DNA of 64,000 nt. It comes from Bacteroidaceae bacterium. GTDB taxonomy: Bacteria; Bacteroidota; Bacteroidia; Bacteroidales; Bacteroidaceae. Position numbers and translations under genes: made by a program. Below, piece by piece: positions 18,031 to 40,699 of the stretch. The notes under the pieces are model-generated. The model was not told the origin of the DNA. It saw only the letters and a list, made by a program, of their open reading frames with translations, and did not search any database. Position 1 is the stretch's first letter; the number at the start of each line of letters is the position of its first letter. The stretch covers positions 13,281-77,280 of the forward strand of contig JAFUFK010000003.1 in assembly GCA_017469925.1 (NCBI GenBank), given 5' to 3'.

Positions 18031-18876
18031 TTACCGGCCGACCACCTCGCGAAGCCAACGAAGGAAGGCCGGCTTCCACTGCCGGCACTCCTCAGTGCCC
18101 CTCTCCTCGCTGGCGCCAAAGCCGTGGCCGCCCGTACGATAGCGGATGTAGCGATGGGGAACGCCCTGTGCCGTCAGGGCCGAGTCGAGCAACTGGGCGT
18201 TGCGGGGATGGACCACGGGGTCGTCGTCGCAATTGACAAGGAAGACGGGCGGGCAGTCGCGAGGCACGTGCCGTTCGAGCGAAAGGGAGTCACGCAACGC
18301 CTGATGGTGCTTGCCGTACTCACCCAAAAGGGCACGGCGCGAACGCTTGTGGGCACACGGTTCGGCCATCGTGACAACGGGATAGATGGAAGCTACGAAG
18401 TCGGGCCGAAGGGAGGTGGTGTCGGTATGAGTAGCCGTAAAGTCGGTGGCCGACAGTTCTGCACCGAGCATGGCCAGATGGCCTCCGGCCGAGAAGCCCA
18501 TCACCCCGATGCGGTCGGCTGGCAGCCCATAAGCCTCGGCCTGAAGACGTAAGGTGAGGATGGCCTCCTGAAGGTCGGCAATCTGGTCGGGATGTCGATG
18601 GCCGCGAACCAGCAGTCGGGCGTGGGTAATGAAAGCCGGCACACCCTGTACCCGATACTTTAAGACGAAGGCAGCAATGCCATTGGCCTGAAGCCAACGG
18701 GCCACGGTGTGGCCCTCGGTGGACATGTCGAGCCACGAGTAACTGCCGCCCGGACAGACGATGACAGCCGCCCAAGGGCGGCCCTCGGGCAGATAGGGAA
18801 TGAGGTCGGGGGTTCGCCCCGTCGCCCCTCGGGCAATGGTGAATAGGAGAAGGAGGAGGAAGGGACGTAGGTTCAT
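18031..18876 (-). CDS. alpha/beta hydrolase (esterase/lipase type), last gene of the long cluster
   Basis: ORF 18031-18912 trimmed to the ATG at 18876, which forms an ATGA overlap with the upstream stop. It has a signal-like N-terminus, the nucleophile elbow GFSAGGHLA, and a C-terminal GGHGFG histidine region. Confidence 0.7.
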   Translation of the reverse strand: MNLRPFLLLLLFTIARGATGRTPDLIPYLPEGRPWAAVIVCPGGSYSWLDMSTEGHTVARWLQANGIAAFVLKYRVQGVPAFITHARLLVRGHRHPDQIADLQEAILTLRLQAEAYGLPADRIGVMGFSAGGHLAMLGAELSATDFTATHTDTTSLRPDFVASIYPVVTMAEPCAHKRSRRALLGEYGKHHQALRDSLSLERHVPRDCPPVFLVNCDDDPVVHPRNAQLLDSALTAQGVPHRYIRYRTGGHGFGASEERGTEECRQWKPAFLRWLREVVGR

Positions 18877-19940
18877 GCGTCGAGTTGGATGTTTGGGGGC
18901 AGATTGGGACAACGGGCATAGAGGCGACGTAGGTTGGCCTGGGCAGTAGGCTGGCCGGGAACTACCGTAGTATCGGGATGGACGAGGGCATAGAGCAGGG
19001 TTATGACACCTGAGAGGTCGTTTCCCTCCACAAAGGCGAGTTGTTCGGGACTGCCTGCATCGACGTAGTCCACATAACCATCGTGGGCACGTAACTCACG
19101 CTCCGCCTGCCGACGAAGGCCGATGCGCGAGAACATTTCGGGCAAGAAGTAGCGGAAGTAGGCGCCCGTCTCCGTCCGTTGGCAAAGGGCTTCGTAATGT
19201 TCCTGGAAGTAGCGGTGGAGGGAACGGGTGCGTGCCTTCACGTCGTTGCCCCACGAACGGTCGTCGGCCTTGATGCGCTGGCCTATCTCGACGTGCAGTG
19301 CAGCATGGTTGCTATAGTTGACGCCCACGGGCATAACGTGGCCCGGACCATGGATAACAATGGGCAGGATGTCGATACCCAACTGTTCGGCAATCCAAAG
19401 AGGGCCCTGGTGGAAGCGACGGATACTGCACGTACGCGAACGCATGCCTTCGGCAAAGATGATGACGGAATAGCCGCGCGACGTGCGGTCGCGGAAGTAG
19501 TCGAGCCGTTCTTCCATACTACTGGCCAAAGGGAAGTAGTCGGCATAGCGGAAGACGCGCGAAACGACGGGCGTGTGCCACACCTTCTCGTTCATTACCA
19601 TCAGGATGCGAGGCGAGAGGGGCAAGAGACAGAGGGGGTCGAGGGTCGATTGGTGGTTGCAGATTATGATGGACCCGCGCTCGAAGGTCTCGCCATGGGG
19701 ATTATCGACAGTGAGACTGAGCCAGGGATGGGCTTTGATGTTCCAACGGAACACCTGCTGGATGCGGCGATGGATGTCGAACCGAGTGGCTTCACTGACA
19801 GGACCACGGCGCAGGGTTATGCGTGTCAACCCGACGTATATACCATAGAAAATCTCTCCGAAAAAGACTACAGCCGAAGCCACTTGCAGGAGGAAGCGGC
19901 GCAGGGTCATGGGGAGGTCTATGAAGGGGTTGGTTCTCAT
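18873..19940 (-). CDS. PlsC-type lysophospholipid/glycerolipid acyltransferase with N-terminal TM segment
   Basis: HX4D motif in CNHQSTLDP, and FAEGMRS (the EGTR-like block). Confidence 0.7.
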   Translation of the reverse strand: MRTNPFIDLPMTLRRFLLQVASAVVFFGEIFYGIYVGLTRITLRRGPVSEATRFDIHRRIQQVFRWNIKAHPWLSLTVDNPHGETFERGSIIICNHQSTLDPLCLLPLSPRILMVMNEKVWHTPVVSRVFRYADYFPLASSMEERLDYFRDRTSRGYSVIIFAEGMRSRTCSIRRFHQGPLWIAEQLGIDILPIVIHGPGHVMPVGVNYSNHAALHVEIGQRIKADDRSWGNDVKARTRSLHRYFQEHYEALCQRTETGAYFRYFLPEMFSRIGLRRQAERELRAHDGYVDYVDAGSPEQLAFVEGNDLSGVITLLYALVHPDTTVVPGQPTAQANLRRLYARCPNLPPNIQLDA

Positions 19941-21265
19941 CAGGATTTGTAGTGTTTGCGGTTGAGTTTGCCATTGAAGGTACGCTCCACTTGGGCGACA
20001 GGCTCATAGAGTTGGGGCACCTTGTAGGGCTCGAGTCGCGACAGGAGGTGGCGGGCCAGATCGCGCTTGCGCAGTTCATGGCCCTCGCTGAGCACTACCA
20101 GCAGGCGCAGGGCCTGGCCCGTGACAGGATGGGGGACAGCCGTACAGATGCAGTCGTGCACCATCGGATGGGAGAGGGCTGCGTCCTCGACCTCAACGGG
20201 AGAGACCTTAAACCCACCAACATTGATGACATCGTCGTCGCGCCCTTGCAGGTGGAGACGGCCCTCGGAGTCGATGCGACCCACGTCGCTGGTGTAGAGT
20301 GTCCCATCCCGCAGGACCTCGGACGTACGAACCGGATTATCGACATAGCCGCTCATGAGCGTATCGCCCTGACAGGCAATGGTGCCCTCGGGGGTGATGA
20401 ACAGGCGGGAGTGGGGCATCGAGCGTCCCAAGCAACCTGCTACGCAGCCGTCGTGGCTATAGCAGTGAGTGGCAATGATACCAGTCTCGGTAGAGGCGTA
20501 CGTGTTGTAGAGACGGGTGTGGGGCAGGAGGTCACAGAGTGCTCGCATATCGGCCTCGGCCATGGGCGCCGCACCCGTCTCGATGAAATCCAGACGGTCG
20601 GCCAAGGCCTGTAGGCGGTCGGCAGCAAACTGCAACAGAATGCGCAAGTTGGCCGGTACCAGGAAGGTGGCAAAACGGGAGAAGGGCAACTGGAAGGCAG
20701 CAAAGAAGTCGTCGAGATTCTTCATACCTTGAAGGATGATGAGGGTGGAACCCGTCATTACCACAGGGAAAATCTTCGAAAGACTGCCGATATGGTTGAG
20801 CGGCCCGGCAATGACGAAGGCTACGTCGGGGCAGAAGCCTTGCGAGGCAATGAGGTTTTCGCCGTCGGCCACAATGGCGCGATGGCTAATCATGACGCCC
20901 TTGGCATCGCCCGTAGTACCCGTTGTGTAGAGTACGTCGGCTGTATCGGAAGCCACTGGGCAACCCTTGAGCCACGAGGAGACAGCAGCAAAGCGCTCGT
21001 CGGACAGACCGCACTCCAGCGGGGCTGCGGCTGCACCCAGCAGATGGACGGCAAAGTAGGTAAGAAGGAAATCTATCGACTGACTGGTGCGAAACGGGAA
21101 AATCTGGCCTTCCCGCAATCCGTCCTCATGGAGCTGACGGGCACGAGACCGTACCCTATGATACAGTTGAGCATAGGTCAGCGACTCCCCACCACAGACA
21201 ACAGCCAGGCAGTCGGGCCGCTGCTCGGCGTGTTCCGAGAGGTAAGTTTCCAGCGTGGGTTTCAT
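19940..21265 (-). CDS. class I adenylate-forming (AMP-dependent) acyl/aryl ligase
   Basis: AMP-binding core LYTTGTTGDAKGVMISH, YASTETG, GDVGRIDSEGRLHLQGRDDDVINVGGFKV. Confidence 0.8.
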   Translation of the reverse strand: MKPTLETYLSEHAEQRPDCLAVVCGGESLTYAQLYHRVRSRARQLHEDGLREGQIFPFRTSQSIDFLLTYFAVHLLGAAAAPLECGLSDERFAAVSSWLKGCPVASDTADVLYTTGTTGDAKGVMISHRAIVADGENLIASQGFCPDVAFVIAGPLNHIGSLSKIFPVVMTGSTLIILQGMKNLDDFFAAFQLPFSRFATFLVPANLRILLQFAADRLQALADRLDFIETGAAPMAEADMRALCDLLPHTRLYNTYASTETGIIATHCYSHDGCVAGCLGRSMPHSRLFITPEGTIACQGDTLMSGYVDNPVRTSEVLRDGTLYTSDVGRIDSEGRLHLQGRDDDVINVGGFKVSPVEVEDAALSHPMVHDCICTAVPHPVTGQALRLLVVLSEGHELRKRDLARHLLSRLEPYKVPQLYEPVAQVERTFNGKLNRKHYKS

Positions 21266-21489
21266 GGGCGGGCGGCGAGTTTCTGCTCCACCATGCGGAC
21301 GATATTGTCGAGGTTGCGCAGGTTCTTGGGTGTGGCATCACGAGAGTCGAGTTCGATTCCGTACTCTTCGGAGAGGGTCATCAGGATGTTGGTGACACCG
21401 AGCGAGTCGAGTTCGCTGTAAAGGAACTCAGATTCAACATCGACCAGGGGGAGGGCTTCTTCGAGAAGCTGTTTTATTTGTTCACGCAT
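21262..21489 (-). CDS. acyl carrier protein (third ACP of the cluster)
   Basis: 75 aa with the phosphopantetheine site LDSLGV in SELDSLGVTNILMTL. It has an ATGA overlap with the ligase gene. Confidence 0.75.
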   Translation of the reverse strand: MREQIKQLLEEALPLVDVESEFLYSELDSLGVTNILMTLSEEYGIELDSRDATPKNLRNLDNIVRMVEQKLAARP

Positions 21490-21492
21490 GAT

Positions 21493-22650
21493 TTATAAAT
21501 GAGAGGTGAGAGGATTAGAAGTGAATAACATTTTCGATTCGATGGGGTTGGCATAGATGCCGAGAAAGATTTCAAAGAGAGTCTCGACGTCGGACGACTC
21601 CTCGTACTGGCAGAGACGACGCATACGGTGGAGGAAGGCCTGCTTCTGCTCCTCGGTGTATTCGTGGCTGTAGGCCTCGTTGCCATAGAGCAGGTCGTGG
21701 GCAATGTAGTTATTGGGCGTCAGGCGATAGGCAGTGCAGATACGCTCATCGAGAAGGGTGGCCACATGGCGGTGGAAATCGCCTGACGTGCATGACTCCC
21801 ACTGGGTCAGTTCGTCGCGAGAGATAGGGCGACAGAACTCCATGTGCACACGTCCCTTCGGTTGCACGATGCCTGTCAGGATACTATTGAGGTCCTCGCC
21901 GGGCTTCTTTGTGTAGGGACCGCGACGGCGCTCGTAAAGTTCGAGCGTCTTCAGTATATCGCACGACTCCCATTCGTAGGAGACGGATACGGGCACGAGG
22001 TGGAGTTGGGCCAAAGCCTCAACCTTGTCGCCCGAATAGCTCATACCAAACATCTTAATGATGCCTTGGTCGGTGCGGTCGATACCATCCTTCGTACGGC
22101 CGTTGCGCTGAGCTATCCACACCGAATGGCGGTCGTCGGTAATCACCTTCCGCATGTACTCCGACAGATGGCACGAGGCACGATAGAACTCGCGTACGTT
22201 AGTGCCGGGGCGCTCGACGCGGAACATGCGATTCGACTTGCCTATATCTACCACCAATTGTCCCTGCATCAGGTTGGCCCCAAAGGTTATTTCCGTAGTC
22301 TCGAACCCGTTACTGACCAAGAGGTATTGCATGAGCGACGAGTCGAGCATGATGTCGCGGTGGTTCGACACGTACATATAACTGCCCGAAGGTGACAGGT
22401 GTTCGAGTCCGCCAAAGGTCAGTTCCGTAATGCTGCGACGGATAACCTGGCGGTTGACCTCCATCATCACCGTATGCTGAAAGTCGCGGATGTTATCGTA
22501 ACTGCGTACCCGCTGGCGCACGGTATTGAGGTCGTCGTCAGGATAGACGTAAGAGGCCAGCAGGGGGAAGGTGGCATTGTCGGCAATACGATGCATAGCT
22601 TCCGATATCTCAGAATCGTAATAGGGGCGTATATCGTCAAACTTTTCCAT
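21493..22650 (-). CDS. glycerolipid-type acyltransferase (HX4D family)
   Basis: ORF 21493-22689 trimmed to the ATG at 22650 (MEKFDDIRPYY). HX4D motif in VSNHRDIMLDSS. The C-terminus ...NPLTSHL runs into a GTGAGAG-type repeat. Confidence 0.6.
   Translation of the reverse strand: MEKFDDIRPYYDSEISEAMHRIADNATFPLLASYVYPDDDLNTVRQRVRSYDNIRDFQHTVMMEVNRQVIRRSITELTFGGLEHLSPSGSYMYVSNHRDIMLDSSLMQYLLVSNGFETTEITFGANLMQGQLVVDIGKSNRMFRVERPGTNVREFYRASCHLSEYMRKVITDDRHSVWIAQRNGRTKDGIDRTDQGIIKMFGMSYSGDKVEALAQLHLVPVSVSYEWESCDILKTLELYERRRGPYTKKPGEDLNSILTGIVQPKGRVHMEFCRPISRDELTQWESCTSGDFHRHVATLLDERICTAYRLTPNNYIAHDLLYGNEAYSHEYTEEQKQAFLHRMRRLCQYEESSDVETLFEIFLGIYANPIESKMLFTSNPLTSHL
21499..21526. repeat. 7-nt-periodic repeat (ATGAGAG GTGAGAG GATTAGA AGTGAAT) at the acyltransferase/ACP junction
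   Basis: It has the same GTGAGAG unit as the tracts at 1229-1281 (reverse complement) and 27009-27064. It covers the last codons of the acyltransferase gene, just after its stop at 21493-21495. The ACP start (21489) is 9 nt beyond the array. Confidence 0.6.
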
Positions 22651-24163
22651 GTTCGTGATGAGTAGGGTTAATTTGTTCGAGCAGCACACCTGGGCCTAAG
22701 ATGGCCTCAGCCGTGACAATGGCCGTCAGGGGCACTCCGCAGATACCGTGGAGGTAGATGTTCTGCCCTGTGAGCAAGAGGTTGCGAAGTTTCGTGGCAA
22801 TGTGAAGCTGCGAGAGGGCCATATTCTCGCAATCCTGACGATAGCCGTAGAGGGTGCCCTCCTTAGAGCCATAGTAGTCGCGAATCGTCAGAGGAGAGGC
22901 TGCAAACCGATACTCCACACAGTCGGAAATGCCTGGAAGGAGGCGTTCGAGCTTGGCCATAATGCGCTGTACATTCCACTCCTTCCATGCCTCGTATTCC
23001 GGTCCGCGATGGGTCACCGTGGTATCGGTCCACTGGCGCACCTCGTCGAACGACATCAAGCAGTTGACCGTCATACGTGAGGCGTAAGGGCCTTGCTTCT
23101 TGTCGGGCGGTGTCAGATACATGAAGCCCAAGGGCCAATCGGGGGCCTCATAGTTTTCGGCATGTTGCCACACCAATCCGTAGCGCTCTTGATAGTAGCA
23201 GGGATGGTTAACGTAGGGCACTGTACCGGGCCGGAACTTCAGATAGAGCACAAAGGCCGAATAGGTATTGGGAATCTCCTCCAGTCTCATACGATAGGCA
23301 CGAGGGAAGGCTCCCTCATCGGCCAATCGGAGCAGCGTCGTGGGGTGGATGTCCGACACATAGATGTCGCCCACATATTCTCGCCCCGAGCAGGTGATGA
23401 CCTTTTGCACCTGACGATCGGCGGTCGCGATGTGGACGACAGCATCGCTCGTCAGTACCTCACCACCTCTATCACGAATAACTTCGGCCAAGGCATCGGC
23501 CAAATGCTGGCCACCACCACCGAAGAGGCTGGAGCCCTCGATGTAGAGTACGTTTATCATGGCGTGGATGTAAGCCGGCGTATGTCCTGCCACCCCGCCG
23601 TACATGGGATTCATGTAGGCCAAAAGGTCCCGCAGACGAAAATCAGTCACGTATTGGGCTATCAACTGGTCGGCGGGCATCAGAAATTCGGGACCGTGGT
23701 CAACGAAGCCTTCAACTGGGCGCCGGAGATTAAAAAGGTCGATTTCATCGGCAATCCGGTAGAGTGTATCGACGTACCGACGCAGTCCTATCGCTTCCTC
23801 TGGGAAGAGGCCGGAAAGATAGGATACGAAGCGCTGACGCCCGCGAGGGATGCGGTAAGTGGTTGGTCCACCCTCCCAATAAGTAATTGCGTCGATGGCA
23901 TCATCGTCGGTTGGGCGAATGTTGAGAAGGTCCATGATGCCCAGATAGCGACATATCTTGTTCAGGCAACCTCCTTCCTGAAATCCACCCAGAATGTGCA
24001 TGCCCGTCTCGTAAAGTTCGCCCCTACGCATGAAACACTGAAGACCGCCACCAATGATGCGATTCTTCTCCAACACCGTCACGCGGCAACCATTCCTAGC
24101 CAACAGGGCACCCGTAAACAGCCCCCCTACTCCACCTCCGATGATGACTACATGCTTGTTCAT
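22637..24163 (-). CDS. FAD-dependent CrtI/phytoene-desaturase-family oxidoreductase
   Basis: N-terminal dinucleotide fold VVIIGGGVGGLFTGALLARNGCRVTVLEKN. About 500 aa, with CrtI-like length and C-terminal LLTGQNI..HGICG. Confidence 0.75.
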   Translation of the reverse strand: MNKHVVIIGGGVGGLFTGALLARNGCRVTVLEKNRIIGGGLQCFMRRGELYETGMHILGGFQEGGCLNKICRYLGIMDLLNIRPTDDDAIDAITYWEGGPTTYRIPRGRQRFVSYLSGLFPEEAIGLRRYVDTLYRIADEIDLFNLRRPVEGFVDHGPEFLMPADQLIAQYVTDFRLRDLLAYMNPMYGGVAGHTPAYIHAMINVLYIEGSSLFGGGGQHLADALAEVIRDRGGEVLTSDAVVHIATADRQVQKVITCSGREYVGDIYVSDIHPTTLLRLADEGAFPRAYRMRLEEIPNTYSAFVLYLKFRPGTVPYVNHPCYYQERYGLVWQHAENYEAPDWPLGFMYLTPPDKKQGPYASRMTVNCLMSFDEVRQWTDTTVTHRGPEYEAWKEWNVQRIMAKLERLLPGISDCVEYRFAASPLTIRDYYGSKEGTLYGYRQDCENMALSQLHIATKLRNLLLTGQNIYLHGICGVPLTAIVTAEAILGPGVLLEQINPTHHEHGKV

Positions 24164-25653
24164 TGGTTGGCCTCCATGATTTGGTTAAATACTGTCTGCG
24201 TGCCCAGAATGTCGGAACACGTAACGATAGTCCCTACCAATACACCTAAAACTCCGTGAGAATTGATGTTCTGGCCCGTAAGCAAGAGATTGGGAACCTT
24301 AGTGCGATGTGAAACGCGACCGGCAGTTCCCAGATGTATGTCCTTGGCCACGCCATAAAGGCTGCCCTCCTCCGTGCCTGTATAATCACGATAGGTAAGG
24401 GGCGTGGCAGTATAGTAATGGGCTACGGCCTGGCGCAGTCCGGGCATATCCTTCTCAAGGGCATCGAGCAAGCGCTCTGCCTTCAGGTGCTTAAAGTCTT
24501 CGTAGGCTTGTCCTCGATGCCCTACACAGGTGTCCTGCCACTGGCGCACATCGTCCATCTGCATGTAGGAAAGCACCACACCACTATGGGCATAACGGGG
24601 ATTCGGTTCGTTGCAGAAGTGCATGTAGAGATAACCCTTTGGCCACGTTGACTCATCATAATGCTCGCAGCCCCAGGGCGAGGGCTGATGATAGGCATAG
24701 AGATTGTGATTCATGTAGGGCATAGCCTCAGGGCGAAACTGGAGGAAAAGCGAGAAGGTAGAAATAGTGTTGGGTATAGCCTGGATGCGCTGGCGATAGG
24801 AGGGACGAAGTATCGGCGTATCCAACAATTCTAACATGCGACAGGGATGGATTCCCGCGATAACATAGTCGGCAGGTAGCAGGCGCTCGCCATTGACCTC
24901 AACAGCTGTGGCCTGCACCGAGTCACATAGTATCCGAGTAGCCTTGCTATTGACCAAGACCTCACCGCCATGGGCTTCTATCTGCCGCCGCAAAGCGTGG
25001 GCCAGTTGGTCGCTGCCTCCAACAAAACGATAAGCACCTTGGTTGTAGAAATCCATTACAAAGGCATGTGTGGCAAAGGGCGTTTTGTCACGTTCGGCGG
25101 CGTACAGGGGCAGATTGCCCACAAGTACACGGGCAAGGAGTGGATCGGTAATAACGCTGTCGATGACCTCGTTGATGCTACGAAGCATGTACTCTGTGCT
25201 CAAGACGGCATTGCCACGGTCGAAGCAAAGGGAATGCATCGACGACGAGCGTGCCACCTGGGCTACAAGGTCGTAATAGCAGGCCAGCTGGTCGGTCTGC
25301 GAAGGGAAATAGCTGCTCATCTGCTGGATGAAGGGGTCGCGACCATTGGCAAAACGGAACTGTTCGCCCCCGAGCGACACCACATCGTATCCATCGGCAT
25401 CAAGGGCTTGCAGACGAAGGTCGTCACGAATGCCCAAATAGCGGAACAACTTGTCCAGAATCTGCCCCTTGCCAGCCGAACCGATAAAATGCATACCCGT
25501 CTCGAAGCGGTTGCCCCGACGCACGAAGCATTGCAGGCAACCGCCCACATGCAATCCCTGTTCCAATACCGTTACCTGGAAACCATTGCGCGACAACAGA
25601 GCTCCACACGATAAGCCTCCAAGCCCACTGCCTATGACTACGATTCGCTTCAT
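24160..25653 (-). CDS. FAD-dependent CrtI/phytoene-desaturase-family oxidoreductase (paralog)
   Basis: IVVIGSGLGGLSCGALLSRNGFQVTVLEQG and C-terminal LLTGQNINSHGVLG. A paralog of the adjacent gene. Confidence 0.75.
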   Translation of the reverse strand: MKRIVVIGSGLGGLSCGALLSRNGFQVTVLEQGLHVGGCLQCFVRRGNRFETGMHFIGSAGKGQILDKLFRYLGIRDDLRLQALDADGYDVVSLGGEQFRFANGRDPFIQQMSSYFPSQTDQLACYYDLVAQVARSSSMHSLCFDRGNAVLSTEYMLRSINEVIDSVITDPLLARVLVGNLPLYAAERDKTPFATHAFVMDFYNQGAYRFVGGSDQLAHALRRQIEAHGGEVLVNSKATRILCDSVQATAVEVNGERLLPADYVIAGIHPCRMLELLDTPILRPSYRQRIQAIPNTISTFSLFLQFRPEAMPYMNHNLYAYHQPSPWGCEHYDESTWPKGYLYMHFCNEPNPRYAHSGVVLSYMQMDDVRQWQDTCVGHRGQAYEDFKHLKAERLLDALEKDMPGLRQAVAHYYTATPLTYRDYTGTEEGSLYGVAKDIHLGTAGRVSHRTKVPNLLLTGQNINSHGVLGVLVGTIVTCSDILGTQTVFNQIMEANQ

Positions 25654-33190: not shown

Positions 33191-33444
33191 TTAGTACGGT
33201 TTTTGCTGACAAAGTCGGCCATCACACGGACGGAGCGGAAGACTTCCTTCCCCTTCGATGCGTCGGCCAGTTTGATACCATAATTCTTCTCCAGGAGTAC
33301 AATGAGTTCCAAGGCATCGATGGAGTCAAGTTCCAGTCCTTCGCCAAAGAGGGGTGCATCGGTATCGATGTCCTCGGGGGTGAGGTCTTCGAGGTTCAGT
33401 ACGTCAATGATTTGTTCTTTCAGTTGTTGAATCAGTTCTTCCAT
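33187..33444 (-). CDS. acyl carrier protein (second ACP)
   Basis: 85 aa, with LELDSIDALELIVLLE containing the DSI/DSL phosphopantetheine serine. Confidence 0.8.
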   Translation of the reverse strand: MEELIQQLKEQIIDVLNLEDLTPEDIDTDAPLFGEGLELDSIDALELIVLLEKNYGIKLADASKGKEVFRSVRVMADFVSKNRTK

Positions 33445-33988: not shown

Positions 33989-35074
33989 CTACATTTTTTC
34001 AAACATCATGGCTGCATTGCCACCGCCAAAGCCCGAAATGGTCTTGACAAATCGCCGCCCCACGACAGACCGATGCTGGGACGAAAGGTTGAGCAACCGA
34101 CTCGTTCCCGCATGCTCATATCCTCGGGTCCCCAGCACGATGCCGTCGTCAAGTGACTGCATGCAGAGCAGGGTCTCGATGAGTCCGGCAGCCCCCATGG
34201 TGTGACCGAGGTAGCCCTTCAGGGAACCTGCGGGCACCGTGGCCAGTCCGGCACGCGTCAGTCCCACGCTCTCCATCTCGTCGTTGTAGAGTGTGGCGGT
34301 ACCATGGAGATTGACGAAGGCAATGTCTGCCGACGAAAGGCCGCCCATGACGGCACTGAGTGCCTGATAGTAGCCTTCGGCGTTCTTGGAGGGCGACGAA
34401 AGGTGATAGGCATCGTTGCGGACAGCGCCTCGTACCAACTGCCACTGGGCACGCGATACATCGCAGCCCAGCACCATACAGGCCGCAGCATCGCCCAAGT
34501 TCAGTCCCATGCGATCCTCGTCGAAGGGGCGACAGGGCTCGGGGGAGAGAGCCTTCAGACTGTAGAAACCATTGACCGTAAAGTCGGACTGCAAGTCGGC
34601 ACCCACCACCACGACATGGTCGTATTCGCCCGACGTCAGCGTCCGCCTTGCCTCGACGAGGGCATGAAGACCGGAAATACAGGCATTGCAGACCACCAGA
34701 GGCACGACAGGATTGCCAAACCACTGGGCTATACGCATGGCTGTCGTGCTCAGGGGGCGGTAGAGGTCGCCCTTCGTCGTAGAAAGGATGAAAAGCGTGC
34801 GCGGGCTACGCACATCGATGTCGGCATCCTGCAAAGCCCCACGGACAGCCAATATGCACAGACGCTCGAAACGGCTATACCCTGCTGTTGCCATACCTTC
34901 GCACATGGTTTCTATCTCTCCTTCATCGAAGAGCGAGGCTACGAAAGGCTGCGGTACGCCCCACCGACCCTCATAGCGGCGAAGCCGGGTCTTCCCCTGC
35001 TTCACAGCCTCGTAGGTGGCACGTGTTCCCAGCCCGAGAGGCGACACGATATAGTCCGACAGTCTTACAACCAC
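33989..35074 (-). CDS. beta-ketoacyl synthase (APE/flexirubin-type KS)
   Basis: VVCNACISGLHAL (active-site Cys), NLHGTATLYND, ISGFGGGNA. The short 361-aa form is typical of these loci. Confidence 0.7.
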   Translation of the reverse strand: MVVRLSDYIVSPLGLGTRATYEAVKQGKTRLRRYEGRWGVPQPFVASLFDEGEIETMCEGMATAGYSRFERLCILAVRGALQDADIDVRSPRTLFILSTTKGDLYRPLSTTAMRIAQWFGNPVVPLVVCNACISGLHALVEARRTLTSGEYDHVVVVGADLQSDFTVNGFYSLKALSPEPCRPFDEDRMGLNLGDAAACMVLGCDVSRAQWQLVRGAVRNDAYHLSSPSKNAEGYYQALSAVMGGLSSADIAFVNLHGTATLYNDEMESVGLTRAGLATVPAGSLKGYLGHTMGAAGLIETLLCMQSLDDGIVLGTRGYEHAGTSRLLNLSSQHRSVVGRRFVKTISGFGGGNAAMMFEKM

Positions 35075-35478
35075 TTTCTCTTCCAGTTTTCAAAGAATTC
35101 AGGACAATACCATACGAGTTGATAGTCGTGGTCCATAAACACCTGCGTACTGCGCCCTGTGGCATAGACCTCGCCATCTTCCGGATTGTATATCTTGTAG
35201 TCAAACACTATCTTGGCGGCATCGCTGGGCACATAGGTGATGCTGATGCGGGGATGCATGCCGTAGAGCAACGGGCGGCGGAAGTTGAACGTCAAGTCCA
35301 CCAGCGGGGCAAAGAAGCCCTCGTCGTAGTAGCGCGAATAGGACAATTCGTATTGTTCGCCGAAAGCCTCGCGGGCATCCTCGAAGTAGAGCGAATACGA
35401 GCCATGCCACACGACGTTCATCGAATCGACTTCGCTGAAACGTATGGTCAGGTCTTTCTCCGTAGTCAGGGTTTTCAT
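35065..35478 (-). CDS. 4HBT/YbgC-type hot-dog thioesterase
   Basis: IRFSEVDSMNVVWHGSYSLYFEDAREAF matches the 4-hydroxybenzoyl-CoA thioesterase family N-terminus. Confidence 0.7.
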   Translation of the reverse strand: MKTLTTEKDLTIRFSEVDSMNVVWHGSYSLYFEDAREAFGEQYELSYSRYYDEGFFAPLVDLTFNFRRPLLYGMHPRISITYVPSDAAKIVFDYKIYNPEDGEVYATGRSTQVFMDHDYQLVWYCPEFFENWKRKWL

Positions 35479-35482: not shown

Positions 35483-35932
35483 TCAATCTTTCTTTAGTGC
35501 ATCTTGAGACTCCTCTCGCTTAATCGCAATCTTCATTTCGGCCTGGACGAGCAGTTCGTCGCCACTACGCACCTCGGCATCGACCATCGTCATGCCGAAG
35601 ACTTCCTCCTTGACGCGAATGGTGGTCGTCAGGCGTTCGCCCACATGGGGCGTGCGCAGTATCGTAAGGTCGCGTATGGCACCGATGTAACCGATGCCTA
35701 CAGGCCGATGGCTGATGTAGTTGATGTAGCCGATGCGCGTGGCACAGGTCTGGGCAATGTTCTCTATAAGTCCCGTCTCCATCAGGTGGTCGCCCTCCGT
35801 AAAGAGCCCGTCGCTGCGCACCTCGAACTCGGTAGTCACCACCTCCTGCGTGAAATGCACCAGATGGTCCACAAGCACGATGGGCGGCCGCTGGGGCAGC
35901 AAGTCGAGTATGTCTATCTCTCGCAGTTCCAT
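35483..35932 (-). CDS. hot-dog fold dehydratase (second DH)
   Basis: ORF 35483-36010. The start was chosen at ATG 35932 (MELREIDILDLLPQRPPIVLVD), with ATG 35953 as an alternative. The LLPQRPP..LVD N-terminus is FabZ-like. Confidence 0.55.
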   Translation of the reverse strand: MELREIDILDLLPQRPPIVLVDHLVHFTQEVVTTEFEVRSDGLFTEGDHLMETGLIENIAQTCATRIGYINYISHRPVGIGYIGAIRDLTILRTPHVGERLTTTIRVKEEVFGMTMVDAEVRSGDELLVQAEMKIAIKREESQDALKKD

Positions 35933-35936
35933 GTCC

Positions 35937-36821
35937 TTATTGCCAAAATTCATAGAAGTTGAACCACTGGTGGGGGTAACGGTGCAAAATTTGGCCCATT
36001 TCATCGGCAAAATGCTGGGCCATCTGCTCCATGCGCTGGCGGCGAGGCAACAAAGCGTCAGCCTCGACGGGGCGCACCACGATGCGGTAACGGCGGACCG
36101 ACTCCTTCATCACGAACAGGGCCAAGGCAGGCACCTCGCGCTGGACGGCCAAGGCAAACGGCCCCAAGGGGAAACGTGCGCGAGCGCCCAGGAAGTCGCA
36201 CTCGACACTGCGAGGCGAACCAAACACGCGGTCGGCCGGCATGCTGACGATGTTGCCCTCGGCAAGTTGCGTCGAAAGGGTATAGACGTGACTCATGTCG
36301 TCGCTCACAGGCACCATGCGCACATGGGTGGCCTCGAACATGCGCCGGCGCTGCTCCATCACGGTCTCCGTCTCGCCCTGGAACACCAAGGCATAGAGCC
36401 ACTTCTGCCGAGGCCGCATCGAGTAGCCCGAGAGTTCGTAGTTACCTACATGACTGCTCAGGAGCATCAGCCCCGGCTCGCCCTGCTCCAACTGGTCGAG
36501 CAATTCCTTGCCCTCGAACTCGAACTGGAACGTCTGCCCGGCAAACATGGCAAAGCGATCGACGATGACCTGCCCAAAGCGGAAGTGCTGGGCATAGACG
36601 TCGGACAGCGCCTGCCAGGGACGGCGCCCGAGACGATGGCGGAAGTAGCGATACGAGGCACGGCACCCGCCGCGATTACGAAACATGTAGAAAGGCACCA
36701 TCCACCCCATACAGAAGTACGGGACGACGAGGGGCGTATGGCGGAACCACCGGACCAGCGTGCGCTGCATCCAGGGTGTGCCCCCCGTGTTACCTTTCCA
36801 CTGTTCGTGTGCGTACGGCAT
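35937..36821 (-). CDS. LpxL/HtrB-like lysophospholipid acyltransferase (LPLAT) family protein
   Basis: SSHVGNYE (HX4E variant of the acyltransferase motif), with the length and N-terminal membrane segment typical of lipid A late acyltransferase-like proteins. Confidence 0.6.
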   Translation of the reverse strand: MPYAHEQWKGNTGGTPWMQRTLVRWFRHTPLVVPYFCMGWMVPFYMFRNRGGCRASYRYFRHRLGRRPWQALSDVYAQHFRFGQVIVDRFAMFAGQTFQFEFEGKELLDQLEQGEPGLMLLSSHVGNYELSGYSMRPRQKWLYALVFQGETETVMEQRRRMFEATHVRMVPVSDDMSHVYTLSTQLAEGNIVSMPADRVFGSPRSVECDFLGARARFPLGPFALAVQREVPALALFVMKESVRRYRIVVRPVEADALLPRRQRMEQMAQHFADEMGQILHRYPHQWFNFYEFWQ

Positions 36822-37066
36822 CAGGCGTTGACTTTCGATTCGATGTAGTCGCAGAACTTGTGCAGCGTATCTACGCCAGCCATTTCTTCGGGCTTAATCT
36901 TAAAGCCGAAGTTCTTCTCCACAATCACGACGATGTCCACGAAGTCGAGGCTGTCGATGCCCATGTCGTCCTTCAGTTTGGCGTCGTCGAAAATCTTTTC
37001 TTCTTCAATCTCCAGGTCTTCGATGAGGAAGTTCCTCACCTTTTCTTCAATTTCTTGTCTTGTCAT
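36821..37066 (-). CDS. acyl carrier protein (first ACP)
   Basis: ORF 36821-37114 trimmed to ATG 37066, 4 nt after the methyltransferase stop. It carries GIDSLDFVDIVV with the phosphopantetheine serine. Confidence 0.8.
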   Translation of the reverse strand: MTRQEIEEKVRNFLIEDLEIEEEKIFDDAKLKDDMGIDSLDFVDIVVIVEKNFGFKIKPEEMAGVDTLHKFCDYIESKVNA

Positions 37067-37070: not shown

Positions 37071-38183
37071 TTAAATCTTTCCATTTTTCCTGCATACCAT
37101 GATGCTGTGGCCATACCCGATGTGGTCGTGCATGGTCTCCAGTTCCAGTCCGGCCTCGCGAACGAGCCGGAGCATGTCGTCGCTGTGGTACATCTTGCTG
37201 TTGCCGTTGGCCAGGGCCGTGAAATAGAGGCTCGTCATGGTCAGGGCAAAGGCAGCGCTCTCATATTTCTGGCGGTCCCAGAAGGTCTCCATGACGTAGA
37301 GCCGGGTGTCGTCGGTCATGGCCGCCCGTGCCCGACGTAGGATGCTCACAATCTCCTCCTCGCCGAAGCAGTCGAGGAATTGCGACATCCAGATGGCATC
37401 CAGCCCACCCTCGCGCTGCGGGAAGAGGGCTTCGGGGTCGAGCAGGTTGATGCCGTGCCCCTTGATGCGCCCGGCACCGGGCTTGTCGGCGGTGTTCGTC
37501 CTCATCAGTCCTATCTGCTGGGGCAGGTCGAGGATGGTAACCTCCACTTCGGGGTCGAACGCCACACACTGGAGGGCCCACTTGCCCGTATTGCCGCCCA
37601 CGTCGTAGAGCGAACGGGTGTGGTGCCGGCGGAAGACAATCTCCAGTGCCTCGGCAAAGGAGTTGTCGCTATAGAAATGGTCGAAGCCGAACCAACTCCG
37701 CTGCACCTGCGGGGGCAGGCTCGAAAGCCCCTCGTAGATGGTGGGCCAGGGGCCGAAGTGCTCCAACCCGGCGGGCCGTCCCTCGCACAGCGACTCCTCC
37801 AGCCGATGCCAACCGATGTAGTTGACATCGTGGTTGAAGTCCATATCCACCTGGTGCGACGGATCGACCAGCAGATACCACCCGGCCCGCGTCAGCGTAT
37901 AGCGGTCGCTCTCGGGGTCGATGACAATGGTACCGATGCTCAGCGAGGCCTCCAGCAACACCTTTGCGGCATAGGGCGAGAGCCCGCACTGTCGGGCCAC
38001 CTCGGCCTCAGTCAGTCCCTCGGCACTCTCGCGCAGGGCCTTCAGCACGCCGAACTTCACCATCAGCCGTGTGGCTTGGAACACCACAGGCCCCCAAGCG
38101 ATGAGTTCGGCCAGATGCTGCGCCTCGTGGGCCGACATCCGGTCCTCGCTGTATGCCTTACGCAGATTCGTATTTAGGTTCAT
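37071..38183 (-). CDS. class I SAM-dependent O-methyltransferase (winged-helix dimerisation domain + MTase)
   Basis: SAM motif I in LYDVGGNTGKWA, with an N-terminal HTH-like dimerisation region. The start could instead be ATG 38138. Confidence 0.7.
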   Translation of the reverse strand: MNLNTNLRKAYSEDRMSAHEAQHLAELIAWGPVVFQATRLMVKFGVLKALRESAEGLTEAEVARQCGLSPYAAKVLLEASLSIGTIVIDPESDRYTLTRAGWYLLVDPSHQVDMDFNHDVNYIGWHRLEESLCEGRPAGLEHFGPWPTIYEGLSSLPPQVQRSWFGFDHFYSDNSFAEALEIVFRRHHTRSLYDVGGNTGKWALQCVAFDPEVEVTILDLPQQIGLMRTNTADKPGAGRIKGHGINLLDPEALFPQREGGLDAIWMSQFLDCFGEEEIVSILRRARAAMTDDTRLYVMETFWDRQKYESAAFALTMTSLYFTALANGNSKMYHSDDMLRLVREAGLELETMHDHIGYGHSIMVCRKNGKI

Positions 38184-38694
38184 TCTTCTTGATAATGCGG
38201 TTGGCGCGTTTCAGTTCCCGCTTCAGCAAATTGCCAGTAACCTTGCCTGTATGTTCGGCACCGTCCTTTATCAGGTTCAGTTTAGTCCCGAATATACCGC
38301 CTTTGGCCGTGATGTACCTGATCGAGGCCTCAACCTGTTCGCCATTCATCACGTACAAATCGCACACAAAATCGCCACGAGAGCTGATGCTGTTCACTAC
38401 GACCCTCAGCCGGTAGTCGGTCTTCAGGTGGGAACCCAGGCGCAACATGCCCGACAGGCGGTCGGCCACCTCGCCGAGGAAGTCGGCAACCACCCTGGGC
38501 TGGTCCTTGTCCCAGTCTTCCTCATATACGGCGAAGTCTTCCTCGCTCATTCCGTGGATGGAGGCTTCGGAGAAGTCAATTTCAAACTTGGCCTTTCCCT
38601 CTTGGGCCAGTCCTACGAACGAGCCCGAAATGGTCTGCCCGTAGGTCATCACTGTCAGGGCTATGCCCACAAATGTCAAAAATAATCGTTTCAT
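38158..38694 (-). CDS. hypothetical secreted protein (cluster-embedded)
   Basis: ORF 38158-38727 trimmed to ATG 38694 (signal MKRLFLTFVGIALTVMTYGQ). No family recognised. Confidence 0.4.
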   Translation of the reverse strand: MKRLFLTFVGIALTVMTYGQTISGSFVGLAQEGKAKFEIDFSEASIHGMSEEDFAVYEEDWDKDQPRVVADFLGEVADRLSGMLRLGSHLKTDYRLRVVVNSISSRGDFVCDLYVMNGEQVEASIRYITAKGGIFGTKLNLIKDGAEHTGKVTGNLLKRELKRANRIIKKNEPKYESA

Positions 38695-38707
38695 AGCGTT
38701 TCTCTTT

Positions 38708-39934
38708 TTATAGTTTCCGGAAAACAAGGGCTGAGTTGGTGCCGCCGAAGCCGAAGGAGTTGGAGAGGACGAGGCGGAGGTCGATGTCCTCGATGGTGTG
38801 GTCGGCCAGACGCAGGGGGGCGGCGTACTCGTCGGGGTGTTCGAGGTTGATGTTGGGAGCCACGAAGCGGTCGCGCATCATCAGCAGGCAATAGACGGCC
38901 TCGCTGGCTCCGGCCATCCAGCACTCGTGGCCCGTCATCGACTTGGTGCTGCTGATCCAGGCCTTCTTGCCATGGAACAGGCGGTCGAGGGCCATGGCCT
39001 CGTACATGTCGCCCTGGTGGGTGCTGGTGGCGTGGGCGTTGATGTAGTCGATGTCGTCGGGCGCGACGCCGGCGTCCTGCATGGCACGTTGCATGGCCGT
39101 GAGGCTGCCCTCGTCGCTGGGTTGCGAGATGCCGCCGCCGTTCGACGAGAATCCGTAGCCCACGACCTCGCCCAGTATGGCGGCTCCGCGCCGGATGGCG
39201 TGGTCGTAGTCCTCCAGGACGAGGGCTGCCGCGCCTCCGCTGGGGATGAGTCCGTCGCGGTCGCGGTCGAAGGGGCGGCTGGCCCGCGTGGGCTCGTCCA
39301 TGCGTTTCGAGAAGGCGCCCAGGGCGTCGAACGTGGCCATCGAGTAGTAGTTGGTCTCCTGCGCACCGCCGCACAGTACCATCTCCTGCATGCCCTGCTT
39401 TATGAGCATGTAGCCCAGCCCGATGGAGTGGCTGCCGCTGGCGCAGGCCGCACTGACTGTGAAGTTGACGCCGCGCAGGTGGAAGATGGTGCTCAGGTTC
39501 ATGTTCACCGTCGAGTTCATGCACTGGAAGATGAGTCCCGAGCCGAGCAGGGCCGAGTCGTGTTTCTCGTCCATGATATGGGCGGCCTCGATGACGGGCC
39601 GGGCCGACGAGTCGTTGCCGAAGATGGCACCCACCTCGTTGGCTCGCAGATAGTCGTCGTCGATGCCGGCCATGGCGAAGGCCTCGCGCGAGGCCATGTA
39701 GGCATACTCGGCCTCCTCCGACAGTCCCACGCGCAGGCGGCGGTCGATGACGCCCTTCAGTTGGGGCCGTTCGACGATGCCCGTCAGGGCACTCTGGTAG
39801 CCGTACTCGAGCCGAGCCTCCTCGAGCCCAATGCCGCTACGCCCCTGGCGCAGCGACTCGGCCACCTCTTCCGTACTTTTTCCCAGGCACGACCATACGC
39901 CTATGCCCGTTACCACTACTCTATTGCTTGCCAT
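38708..39934 (-). CDS. beta-ketoacyl-ACP synthase I/II family
   Basis: ORF 38708-39967 trimmed to ATG 39934 (MASNRVVVTGIGV). It carries SAACASGSHSIG (Cys), NAHATSTHQGD, SFGFGGTNS. Confidence 0.85.
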   Translation of the reverse strand: MASNRVVVTGIGVWSCLGKSTEEVAESLRQGRSGIGLEEARLEYGYQSALTGIVERPQLKGVIDRRLRVGLSEEAEYAYMASREAFAMAGIDDDYLRANEVGAIFGNDSSARPVIEAAHIMDEKHDSALLGSGLIFQCMNSTVNMNLSTIFHLRGVNFTVSAACASGSHSIGLGYMLIKQGMQEMVLCGGAQETNYYSMATFDALGAFSKRMDEPTRASRPFDRDRDGLIPSGGAAALVLEDYDHAIRRGAAILGEVVGYGFSSNGGGISQPSDEGSLTAMQRAMQDAGVAPDDIDYINAHATSTHQGDMYEAMALDRLFHGKKAWISSTKSMTGHECWMAGASEAVYCLLMMRDRFVAPNINLEHPDEYAAPLRLADHTIEDIDLRLVLSNSFGFGGTNSALVFRKL

Positions 39935-39936
39935 AT

Positions 39937-39971
39937 AACTCTTAACTCTGAACTTTGCACTTTGCACTTAC
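39937..39971. repeat. 7-nt-periodic tandem repeat (AACTCTT AACTCTG AACTTTG CACTTTG CACTTAC) at the fabG/KAS junction
   Basis: The fabG stop (39968-39970) lies inside the array, which ends 2 nt from the KAS start codon (39934). Confidence 0.85.
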
Positions 39972-40699
39972 GTATATAGTCCGCCGTTGATGCTGATGAC
40001 CTCGCCCGTGATGTACGAAGCCGCGTCGGACAGCAGGAAGCCCACCAGTTCGGCCACCTCCTCGGGACGTCCGAAACGCTTCATGGGCACCAGTTCGCGC
40101 AACTCCTCCTGGGGCAGGTCGGCGGTCATGTCGGTCTCGATGAAACCGGGTGCAACGGCGTTGACCGTCACCCCGCGCACGGCCGTCTCCTGGGCCAGGG
40201 CCTTGGTGGCTCCGACGAGGGCGGCCTTGGCCGCGCTGTAGTTGGTCTGGCCGGGCAGTCCCTTGAGGCCCGAGAGCGAGGCCATGTTGACGATGCGCCC
40301 GCCGTGGCGGCGTCGCATCATCTGGGGCAGCAGTCGCTTCGTGACGTAGTAGAATCCGTTGAGCGACGTGTCGAGCACCGCGTGCCAGTCGGCCGAGGGC
40401 ATCATGAACATCATACCGTCGCGCCGTATGCCGGCGTTGTTCACGAGGTAGGCTATGTAGTCGTCGGGGTGCCGCTCCTGCCAGCCGTCGAGGGCCGTCT
40501 CTACCTGGGCCTCGTCGCCGACGTCGAAGGGCAAGAGTTCGGCCCGTCCGCCCATGGCCCGAATCTGTTCGGCGACCTCCTCGGCAGCCGCCCGATTGCG
40601 CTGGAAATTGACGATGACAGGCAGCCCCATCTGGGCCAGTTTCAGGCACACTGCGCGCCCGAGCCCGCGCGAACCACCCGTCACTAATGCGTATTTCAT
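39968..40699 (-). CDS. fabG: 3-oxoacyl-ACP reductase (SDR), first gene of the long cluster
   Basis: ORF 39968-40777 trimmed to ATG 40699 (MKYALVTGGSRGLGRAV). It carries NNAGI and YSAAKAAL (YxxxK). Confidence 0.85.
   Translation of the reverse strand: MKYALVTGGSRGLGRAVCLKLAQMGLPVIVNFQRNRAAAEEVAEQIRAMGGRAELLPFDVGDEAQVETALDGWQERHPDDYIAYLVNNAGIRRDGMMFMMPSADWHAVLDTSLNGFYYVTKRLLPQMMRRRHGGRIVNMASLSGLKGLPGQTNYSAAKAALVGATKALAQETAVRGVTVNAVAPGFIETDMTADLPQEELRELVPMKRFGRPEEVAELVGFLLSDAASYITGEVISINGGLYT

Follow-up and report, generated by a model that had tools for sequence, protein, structure and literature searches.

A Bacteroidales version of the aryl-polyene/flexirubin gene cluster, probably directed towards an exported lipid rather than flexirubin

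The subject of this report is a run of 25 consecutive minus-strand genes, extending from the ATG of a ketoreductase (KR) gene at 40699 to the stop codon of an esterase gene at 18031, within a 64,000-nucleotide stretch (referred to throughout as the window) of contig JAFUFK010000003.1 from a Bacteroidaceae bacterium (assembly GCA_017469925.1). The genes were delimited using an open-reading-frame list together with a gene model, start codons being set to match the gene calls of an identical public contig, and they are numbered here from g25 (the KR) down to g1 (the esterase; see Table 1). Judged by its sequence, the run belongs to the well-known aryl-polyene/flexirubin family of biosynthetic gene clusters (BGCs), in a form that is common in gut and oral Bacteroidales, and the interpretation preferred here, held with moderate confidence, is that this Bacteroidales version of the cluster makes a lipid resembling the aryl polyene lipids (APELs) rather than a flexirubin. 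An earlier note on this DNA, made from the letters alone, had called the cluster a type II polyketide synthase (PKS) and lipid cluster of the aryl polyene (APE) or flexirubin type, a description that is now borne out by 18 orthologues in flexirubin (flx) clusters, by counterparts in the ape clusters of Proteobacteria, and by the passing of flexirubin-specific equivalog cut-offs.

If likeness is judged by the FlxB–FlxV core, the closest known systems are the flx reference clusters of Chitinophaga pinensis, Flavobacterium johnsoniae and Persicobacter psychrovividus. The canonical comparator used was the flx-type cluster of P. psychrovividus plasmid pPP6, which contains a gene for tyrosine ammonia-lyase (TAL) and was found by tblastn of plasmids with g7; 18 window genes are collinear, one-to-one orthologues of its FlxB to FlxV, at 22–64% identity, and the gene order also agrees with the published gene table of the C. 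pinensis cluster (flxA to flxY). What the window cluster has in common with the flx clusters comprises the KR, a ketosynthase (KS), an acyl carrier protein (ACP), an LpxL-like acyltransferase, a dehydratase, a thioesterase, a KS with its small partner, a further ACP and a KS with its chain-length factor (CLF), as well as LolA2, LolB2, a dehydratase, a family 2 glycosyltransferase (GT2), an MMPL-acyltransferase protein and the FlxV flavoenzyme, to which the FlxJ methyltransferase must be added. Three proteins, namely FlxB (g25), FlxJ (g22) and LolA2 (g12), pass flexirubin-specific NCBIfam equivalog cut-offs, and NCBI annotation models would label several of the cluster genes as flexirubin biosynthesis proteins. 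There are nevertheless clear differences from the flx clusters: the window cluster is without FlxA (the TAL), FlxK (a halogenase), FlxP (a deacetylase), FlxW (a C45-family protein for which esterification of polyene and resorcinol has been proposed), FlxX (a phosphopantetheinyl transferase, PPTase), FlxY (a PaaK-like ligase, the 4-coumarate ligase) and DarA/DarB; FlxN and FlxO are fused in it, and FlxV is duplicated. It adds the ArnE/ArnF-like g13, g23, and the genes g5, g4, g3, g2 and g1, which have no flx counterpart and occupy the slot that FlxW to FlxY take in flx clusters.

Comparison with the ape clusters leads to a similar picture. The core set of an APE cluster has been given as KS apeO/R, ACP apeE/F, CLF apeC, dehydratase apeI/P, KR apeQ and transporter apeM (Grammbitter et al. 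2020), and the window cluster contains ApeO-type and ApeR-type KSs, a CLF without the catalytic Cys, ApeE- and ApeF-type ACPs, an ApeQ-type KR and an MMPL exporter, which are the features by which the family is recognised. Using BLAST and small profiles, counterparts of E. coli CFT073 ApeB, C, D, E, F, I, J, K, L, M, O, P, Q and R can be identified, although ApeJ is split into g9 (the GT2) and g20 (the LpxL-like part), while ApeO is fused with ApeC (g14) and ApeM with ApeD (g8). Relative to ape, the window cluster adds a second KS/CLF pair (g17 and g16), the two FlxV flavoenzymes, an acyltransferase of the glycerol-3-phosphate acyltransferase (GPAT) fold, a third ACP and an esterase; it has no clear orthologues of ApeA, ApeG or ApeN, and its adenylating enzyme g3 is just 23% identical to ApeH. 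The logic of lipid assembly and of Lol-like/MMPL export is common to both, as is the presence of an adenylating enzyme as the only gene bearing on the starter unit. The earlier note had regarded the lack of starter-forming genes as atypical, a view that does not survive this comparison: E. coli-type ape clusters likewise carry an adenylating enzyme only, and clusters of this type, without starter genes, still make aryl polyenes.

Pfam and NCBIfam scans of the cluster proteins yield an inventory made up of a KR, three KSs, two CLF-like partners without the catalytic Cys (of which one is part of a fusion), three ACPs, a pair of hot-dog dehydratases and a 4HBT thioesterase; a methyltransferase, an LpxL-like acyltransferase, a GT2, a LolA-like protein, an MMPL protein and an adenylating enzyme; and two CrtI-family flavoenzymes, PlsC/GPAT-type acyltransferases and an alpha/beta hydrolase. 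The earlier gene list is confirmed by these scans, but it had overlooked the fused nature of g14 (KS with CLF) and of g8 (MMPL with acyltransferase), as well as the LolB2-like g11, the ArnE/F-like g13 and the secreted g23. Identities that place the core proteins more exactly, beyond those in Table 1, are 56% for g25 with Persicobacter FlxB and 45% with E. coli ApeQ; 34% for g24 with ApeR (over the full length) and 40% with E. coli FabB; 36% for g21 with ApeF (profile match E = 3e-19); and, for g14, 45% with FlxN, 37% with FlxO, 35% with ApeO and 25% with ApeC.

The Cys-His-His triad is intact in all three ketosynthases (g24, g17 and g14), and none of them reaches the relevant equivalog cut-offs of the housekeeping enzymes, g24 scoring 378 against a FabB cut-off of 630 and 337 against the FabF cut-off of 494, to which g14 (317) and g17 (135) are also inferior. 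In a small neighbour-joining tree, constructed without housekeeping Bacteroidales FabF, the N-terminal part of g14 falls with FlxN and ApeO, g24 with FlxC, and g17 with FlxI at 100% bootstrap, the pair of g24 and FlxC being sister to E. coli FabB (98% bootstrap). A KS phylogeny had been proposed as a check that might have turned the whole cluster into primary fatty-acid synthesis; in the event the secondary-metabolite reading is not refuted by it, g24 being FabB-like but under the cut-offs, and no FabH, FabD or enoyl reductase being found among the 25 cluster genes by Pfam scans. By homology the PKS is of type II, without an enoyl reductase. A motif SPxxF...N..(A/V)G is common to g16, the C-terminal half of g14 and E. 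coli ApeC, and both of the window proteins lack the catalytic Cys in this region.

Evidence for the two dehydratases is less uniform. Precomputed Pfam assignments list both an ApeP-like (g19) and an ApeI-like (g10) domain, whereas direct hmmscan gave no ApeP-like match and an ApeI-like match of 15 bits (cut-off 28.5); the profile match of g19 to ApeP is weak (E = 2.4e-4 in an 18-protein database), and PDB sequence searches with the two proteins were marginal (FabZ, E = 0.2; ApeI chain 6qsr_A, E = 0.04). As orthologues of FlxS and FlxF, respectively, g10 and g19 are nevertheless clear.

Seven related loci (L003–L007, L012 and L014, taken as contigs with 10-kb flanks) were available for comparison, the nearest loci being from Bacteroides, Paraprevotella, Alistipes, Porphyromonadaceae and unclassified Bacteroidales metagenome-assembled genomes (MAGs), at about 40–60% protein identity; a contig search with g8 gave six loci, Flavobacteriia and Chitinophagia being unrepresented among them. 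Five metagenome contigs carry a protein identical to g14, and the fused KS-CLF architecture is present in all 120 of the homologues listed, so this fusion is a common Bacteroidales gene and not a quirk of the present contig. Fusion is variable elsewhere in the core: g17 and g16 correspond to one open reading frame in the Bacteroides and Paraprevotella MAGs (L003 3595-5379; L004 3643-5415), and a GT2 is fused with a PlsC acyltransferase, in an ApeJ-like manner, at 4086-6098 in L007 and 6003-7553 in L014. Compared with these relatives the window comes from a Bacteroidales MAG of higher GC content, reaches no more than about 50–60% protein identity to the closest loci, has g17 and g16 unfused and g23 as an extra gene, and differs in the order of the accessory genes.

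The methyltransferase g22 deserves particular attention, as the expectation of a phenolic head group depends mainly on the fact that this ApeB/FlxJ orthologue has been retained. It aligns over its full length with Persicobacter FlxJ (47% identity) and with ApeB (43%), and in Xenorhabdus deletion of apeB leads to desmethyl products, ApeB methylating the phenyl ring. An enzyme of the ApeB/FlxJ type would imply a phenolic head group, and the earlier opinion that the head group could not be inferred from the sequence is in this respect too pessimistic.

For the genes concerned with lipid assembly and export, the best guide is the ape cluster of Xenorhabdus doucetiae, which makes APELs and for which the roles of the genes are known from deletion mutants: ApeD is responsible for sn-2 acylation of a glycerophospholipid, ApeJ first transfers GalNAc onto the phosphate and afterwards attaches the aryl polyene to this sugar as an ester, and ApeM, ApeL and ApeN serve for export. 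In the window cluster, g20 gives a profile match to ApeJ residues 297-550 (E = 7e-30), while g9 resembles lipid-phosphate sugar transferases, its best NCBIfam matches (AglJ, PpgS and ArnC) all being under cut-off. The large fusion protein g8 is 28% identical to FlxU over 1049 residues and gives weak matches to ApeM and ApeD. The LolA2 protein g12 is 22% identical to FlxQ and matches the ApeL profile with E = 2.8e-16; its LolB2-like neighbour g11 scores 35.5 with NCBIfam LolB2_flexi (cut-off 60), and its top profile match, to ApeN, is weak (E = 0.023). The small protein g13 scores 52 with NCBIfam ArnF and 49.5 with ArnE, in each case under the cut-off, and is kept in all seven related loci. Conversely, g23 has no homologue in any related locus compared and has a lower GC content at third codon positions (GC3) than its neighbours; it appears to be specific to this lineage, and may have entered the cluster recently.

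Downstream of g8 lies the 7.6-kb block g7–g1, which the earlier note had placed outside the canonical gene set. This needs revision on three counts. Firstly, g7 and g6 are a duplicated FlxV (35% and 33% identity), and stand in the FlxV position directly after FlxU (g8); the NCBIfam CrtD, CrtISO and CrtI scores of g7 are all under cut-off, and g6 is present in L003, L004, L006, L007, L012 and L014. Secondly, PlsC-type (ApeD) and adenylating (ApeH) enzymes belong to the E. coli ape set, g2 matching the ApeD profile with E = 5e-18 and being 36% identical to the C-terminus of g8. Thirdly, all or most of the five genes g5–g1 recur with the core in six other Bacteroidales loci (the esterase in five): g7 or g6, g5, g4, g3, g2 and g1 accompany it in L003–L007, L012 and L014 with their order shuffled, and such recurrence despite rearrangement argues for a functional linkage.

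Within this block, g5 was assigned using a predicted structure, for which Foldseek ranked human GPAT1 first (E = 8e-9), ahead of the PlsC of T. maritima and GPATs from plants; its family extends over more than 100 Bacteroidales protein clusters at 62–68% identity, and it lies inside the APE cluster in L003, L004, L006, L012 and L014. The third carrier protein, g4, is not ApeE/F-like (profile E about 0.05), and its orthologue always adjoins that of g3 (in L003, L004, L012 and L014), g3 with its own ACP g4 being a candidate loading pair. The closest PDB matches of g3 are the LgrA A domain (164 bits) and feruloyl-CoA synthetase (121 bits), and its best NCBIfam match is a fatty-acid-CoA ligase model; against the FlxY-type ligase it gives E = 0.01 over 87 residues. 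A role in activating an amino acid, as the top PDB match to an A domain of a nonribosomal peptide synthetase might suggest, was considered and rejected, the A4 motif being PLNHIG (His-type) and not FDxS with the amino-binding Asp. As for g1, the NCBIfam scores for PaeX and AxeA1 are under cut-off and the PDB matches are 6a6o, 7dwc and 3bjr; among the relatives, L012 and L014 have the gene within the cluster, and L005 and L007 carry it as well.

By analogy, then, the product that best accounts for these parts would be an APEL-like polyene glyco-phospholipid exported by MMPL, LolA2 and LolB2, the PKS and export parts of this proposal drawing on orthology to characterised systems and the lipid part on the Xenorhabdus APEL pathway; the outer-membrane polyene glycolipid suggested in the earlier note is in keeping with it. 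Conjugated polyene acyl chains would be built by g24, the KS-CLF protein g14, the pair g17 and g16, the KR g25, the dehydratases g19 and g10, and the ACPs g21 and g15. Meanwhile glycerol-3-phosphate would be acylated by g5 together with the two acyltransferases of PlsC type, namely g2 and the domain at the C-terminus of g8; g9 would add a hexosamine to the lipid phosphate, and g20 would esterify the polyene from its ACP onto the sugar, g9 and g20 together acting as a split ApeJ. Transport to the outer membrane would be shared by g13, by g8 through its MMPL domain, and by LolA2 (g12) with LolB2 (g11), while the FlxV-like g7 and g6 may modify double bonds. More speculatively, g3 and its ACP g4 might serve for loading, the acid being either the aromatic starter or a fatty acid in free form. 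Taken together, g5, g2, the acyltransferase domain of g8, g9, g20, g13, g12 and g11 look like a more complete and self-contained version of the APEL logic.

There are, of course, points that weigh against the APEL-like proposal. Every step at the level of the product is drawn by analogy; g3 is an orthologue of neither ApeH (23% identity) nor FlxY; g19 resembles ApeP, and g11 ApeN, only weakly; and the window holds no gene that could supply an aromatic starter, whether for TAL, UbiC or an enzyme of XanB2 type. In addition, Bacteroides and Prevotella have not, to our knowledge, been described as yellow or flexirubin-positive, and for this reason the cluster may not be expressed, or may make something other than a long chromophore.

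The main rival, which we regard as unlikely though well worth keeping in mind, is a polyene or polyunsaturated acyl glycolipid without any aromatic head, for which g3 and g4 would load an aliphatic starter. Such a product would be like the conjugated, non-aryl C26:5 acyl chain that the Xenorhabdus ape cluster yields in addition to its aryl polyenes, and it would be in line with the absence from the window of any enzyme forming an aromatic acid, with the generic ANL character of g3 (for which a fatty-acid-CoA ligase model is the best NCBIfam match) and with the presence of two KS/CLF pairs. However, g22 weighs against it, being a full-length ApeB/FlxJ orthologue above its equivalog cut-off, with ring methylation the role shown for ApeB; moreover the E. 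coli-type clusters, from which starter genes are likewise missing, do make aryl polyenes.

A more adventurous variant of the aryl reading, which must be rated as improbable, is that in this Bacteroidales cluster type the TAL and 4-coumarate ligase, together with the resorcinol-esterifying FlxW, have been exchanged for a salvage-and-lipidation module (g1, g3/g4 and g5/g2/g8). The secreted esterase g1 would free hydroxycinnamic or hydroxybenzoic acids from dietary plant fibre, g3 would load the freed acids onto its private ACP g4, and the GPAT/PlsC-type set (g5, g2 and g8) would make a dedicated glycerophospholipid carrier. Were this true, it would mean that gut anaerobes carry an aryl-polyene outer-membrane lipid that depends on the diet of the host.

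Lower still, and very unlikely, stands a genuine flexirubin, that is, an aryl-octaene acid ester of a dialkylresorcinol, with the TAL, 4-coumarate ligase, FlxW and DarA/DarB encoded elsewhere in the genome. The collinearity of FlxB–FlxV and the three flexirubin-specific equivalogs speak in favour of this, as does the fact that the dar genes of C. pinensis sit at a separate locus, but TAL, FlxW and FlxY are inside the flx cluster in both reference clusters, and it is precisely their slot that g5–g1 fill here, while nothing in the cluster is homologous to the FlxY-type ligase. As the earlier note had said, no aromatic ammonia-lyase, chorismate-utilising enzyme or DarA/DarB is to be found among the 47 predicted proteins of the window (four rml/outer membrane protein (OMP) flank genes at 14079-17924 were checked only by reading their translations or, in the case of the OMP, by Pfam); no window protein scanned has a Lyase_aromatic domain, the sole DarB match is g24 at 23.7 bits against a cut-off of 550, and the window holds no C45 peptidase (the FlxW family), halogenase or PPTase. 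Neither these genes nor FlxY turned up in tblastn searches and Pfam/gene tables of the seven relatives' loci, and it is the absence of TAL, FlxW, FlxY and DarA/DarB from the 64-kb window that makes flexirubin itself unlikely.

Finally, a housekeeping operon for type II fatty-acid and phospholipid synthesis, although consistent with the similarity and bootstrap grouping of g24 with FabB, with the fact that g25 also passes the generic FabG model and with the GPAT- and PlsC-type acyltransferases, is already contradicted by the data and has a negligible chance of being right, as genes for FabH, FabD, FabI/K and Acc are missing from the cluster, none of the three KSs attains the equivalog cut-off for FabF or FabB, g24 shares 58% identity with FlxC, and Cys-less CLFs, ApeI/ApeP-type dehydratases, a ring methyltransferase, LolA2/LolB2 and MMPL proteins accompany them.

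To return to the preferred, APEL-like interpretation, its place among earlier findings can be stated briefly. Clusters of the APE/flexirubin family are among the most widespread of bacterial BGCs, in Proteobacteria giving protection against oxidative stress, and the flexirubin gene-cluster ‘cloud’ has been found to cover five of the six Bacteroidetes classes analysed. Genome mining has revealed an arylpolyene BGC in Bacteroides xylanisolvens that has been described as syntenic with the C. pinensis flexirubin BGC, and arylpolyene BGCs in many Prevotella species; these are of the same antiSMASH type and from the same phylogenetic group as the window cluster. In the gut and oral microbiomes of humans the Bacteroidales form is both abundant and persistent, with a statistical link to colonisation and caries. 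The window therefore brings no new class, and its family membership is unsurprising. In the literature searched, no experimental characterisation of the product of a Bacteroidales cluster was found, in agreement with the earlier statement that the product is uncharacterised for this lineage. What the comparison provides is a parts list of the subtype, consisting of the conserved flx/ape core, the absent initiation and termination genes and the five-gene module in their place, by which an ‘uncharacterised arylpolyene BGC’ is turned into a set of concrete questions, namely the substrate of g3/g4, the roles of the two FlxV paralogues and the nature of the lipid acceptor.

Table 1 Coordinates of the 25 cluster genes, the putative promoter and the 5' boundary hairpin, with the principal basis for each assignment.
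Feature	Position	Strand	Basis
Terminator-like hairpin and T-run of upstream GH85/type IX secretion system (T9SS) gene; 5' boundary of unit	41020..41051	-	14-nt arms, 93% complementary, then TCTTTTG
Putative Bacteroidetes-type promoter: TTTG 40771-40768, 20-nt spacer, TACCTTTG 40747-40740	40740..40771	-	direct sequence reading
g25, ketoreductase, FlxB/ApeQ orthologue	39968..40699	-	NCBIfam FlxB_rubin_SDR 389.7 (cut-off 340)
g24, FabB-like ketosynthase, FlxC/ApeR type, Cys-His-His triad intact	38708..39934	-	58% to FlxC
g23, 178-aa protein, N-terminal signal-like sequence	38158..38694	-	no Pfam/NCBIfam match
g22, S-adenosylmethionine (SAM) methyltransferase, FlxJ/ApeB orthologue	37071..38183	-	NCBIfam FlxJ_fam_MTase 570.2 (cut-off 560)
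g21, ACP, FlxD/ApeF type	36821..37066	-	PP-binding domain; 44% to FlxD
g20, LpxL-family acyltransferase, equivalent to FlxE / C-terminal half of E. coli ApeJ	35937..36821	-	Pfam Lip_A_acyltrans; 28% to FlxE
g19, hot-dog dehydratase, FlxF/ApeP type	35483..35953	-	35% to FlxF
g18, 4HBT-fold thioesterase, FlxH/ApeK	35065..35478	-	Pfam 4HBT_2; 51% to FlxH, 33% to ApeK
g17, short ketosynthase (361 aa), FlxI type, Cys-His-His triad intact	33989..35074	-	35% to FlxI
g16, Cys-less CLF-like partner of g17, FlxL type	33432..33983	-	30% to FlxL
g15, ACP, FlxM/ApeE type	33187..33444	-	64% to FlxM, 49% to ApeE
g14, ketosynthase (FlxN/ApeO) + chain-length factor (FlxO/ApeC) fusion	31346..33190	-	Pfam ketoacyl-synt + Ketoacyl-synt_2 (PF13723)
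g13, small EamA/DMT protein with four transmembrane segments, ArnE/ArnF-flippase-subunit-like	30969..31325	-	Pfam EamA 34.6 (cut-off 28.2)
g12, LolA2 periplasmic carrier (FlxQ/ApeL)	30323..30964	-	NCBIfam LolA2_flexi 208.2 (cut-off 125)
g11, LolB2-like protein (FlxR; possibly ApeN-like)	29880..30326	-	22% to FlxR, E = 2e-7
g10, hot-dog dehydratase, FlxS/ApeI type	29525..29896	-	29% to FlxS; ApeI profile E = 6e-12
g9, GT2 glycosyltransferase, equivalent to FlxT / N-terminal half of ApeJ	28793..29512	-	48% to FlxT, 34% to ApeJ N-terminus
g8, MMPL/RND exporter + PlsC-type acyltransferase fusion (FlxU; equivalent to ApeM + ApeD)	25650..28796	-	Pfam MMPL + Acyltransferase
g7, CrtI/CrtISO/RetSat-family flavoenzyme, FlxV orthologue	24160..25653	-	35% to Persicobacter FlxV, full length
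g6, second FlxV-like flavoenzyme, g7 paralogue	22637..24163	-	38% to g7, 33% to FlxV (full length)
g5, GPAT/PlsB-fold acyltransferase	21493..22650	-	AlphaFold2 model (pLDDT 85.8) + Foldseek; Pfam match marginal
g4, third carrier protein, overlaps g3 start	21262..21489	-	PP-binding domain
g3, ANL-superfamily adenylating enzyme, 441 aa	19940..21265	-	Pfam AMP-binding + AMP-binding_C; acid-ligase-type A4 motif PLNHIG
g2, PlsC/LPLAT acyltransferase, ApeD-like, paralogue of g8 acyltransferase domain	18873..19940	-	Pfam Acyltransferase
g1, secreted alpha/beta esterase, BD-FAE family (acetyl/feruloyl-esterase-like)	18031..18876	-	Pfam BD-FAE

The tight packing of the 25 genes described in the earlier note is upheld, with gaps of at most 33 nt throughout the cluster and overlaps at 15 of the 24 junctions. 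Seven of the eight ATGA overlaps that had been listed are true 4-nt start/stop overlaps (18873, 21262, 24160, 25650, 28793, 30323 and 33187), while at 19940, and likewise at 36821, the genes overlap by 1 nt (TGATG). The single promoter box that had been proposed is indeed present, 40 nt 5' of the first cluster ATG, and a TTTG, a 20-nt spacer and a TACCTTTG box have the spacing expected of a Bacteroidetes promoter; but TAnnTTTG occurs seven times on the minus strand between 17.0 and 41.2 kb, against roughly six by chance, and four of the seven copies are inside the cluster. The box suits a Bacteroidetes promoter on position alone, the motif by itself not being significant, and a single promoter for the whole cluster is plausible but unproven. 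Scans for sigma-70 promoters and terminators within the cluster gave the shuffled expectation, and are uninformative for Bacteroidetes; Rfam found nothing in the cluster leader, its sole match in the window being a tRNA. Inside the cluster GC3 follows a gradient, from 0.85–0.87 in g25/g24 through 0.47–0.50 in g9–g11 to about 0.70 in g1–g5, which suggests that the segment in the middle (export/GT) is of recombinant or mosaic origin.

On its 5' side the cluster is flanked by a gene (41160-44234) for a GH85-like protein with a T9SS sorting tail, and on its 3' side by an OMP gene that carries its own TAnnTTTG at 17962; no homologue of either flank gene is next to the cluster in the related loci. 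Just past this OMP gene there is a tRNA-Ser (CGA) at 17195-17282 on the plus strand. Between the upstream gene and the promoter lies an imperfect palindromic element of about 135 bp (40830-40970), whose core AAAGTAATGTTAACCTA is present as an inverted pair and whose RNA fold has an energy of -71 kcal/mol (z = -6.6). The possibility that this inverted repeat might be a regulator of the cluster, or the site of an invertible promoter, was rejected, as the promoter is outside it and a copy with 89% identity is found in an unrelated intergenic region at about 59290-59430, both copies being intergenic; it looks like a dispersed palindromic repeat of the repetitive extragenic palindrome (REP) or miniature inverted-repeat transposable element (MITE) kind, not a cluster-specific regulator.

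Two further features of the window, at some distance from the cluster, may be recorded. Positions 5849-13347 form a low-GC island (35–45%, against about 60% in its flanks), which encodes a protein with a T9SS tail, a 1978-aa SpvB/TcdB/FG-GAP/RHS polymorphic-toxin-like protein and an Imm26 immunity protein. At 51469-56502, on the minus strand, there is a gene for a 1677-aa peptidase M60 (enhancin-like) protein that ends in a dockerin type I domain, an unusual feature for Bacteroidales.

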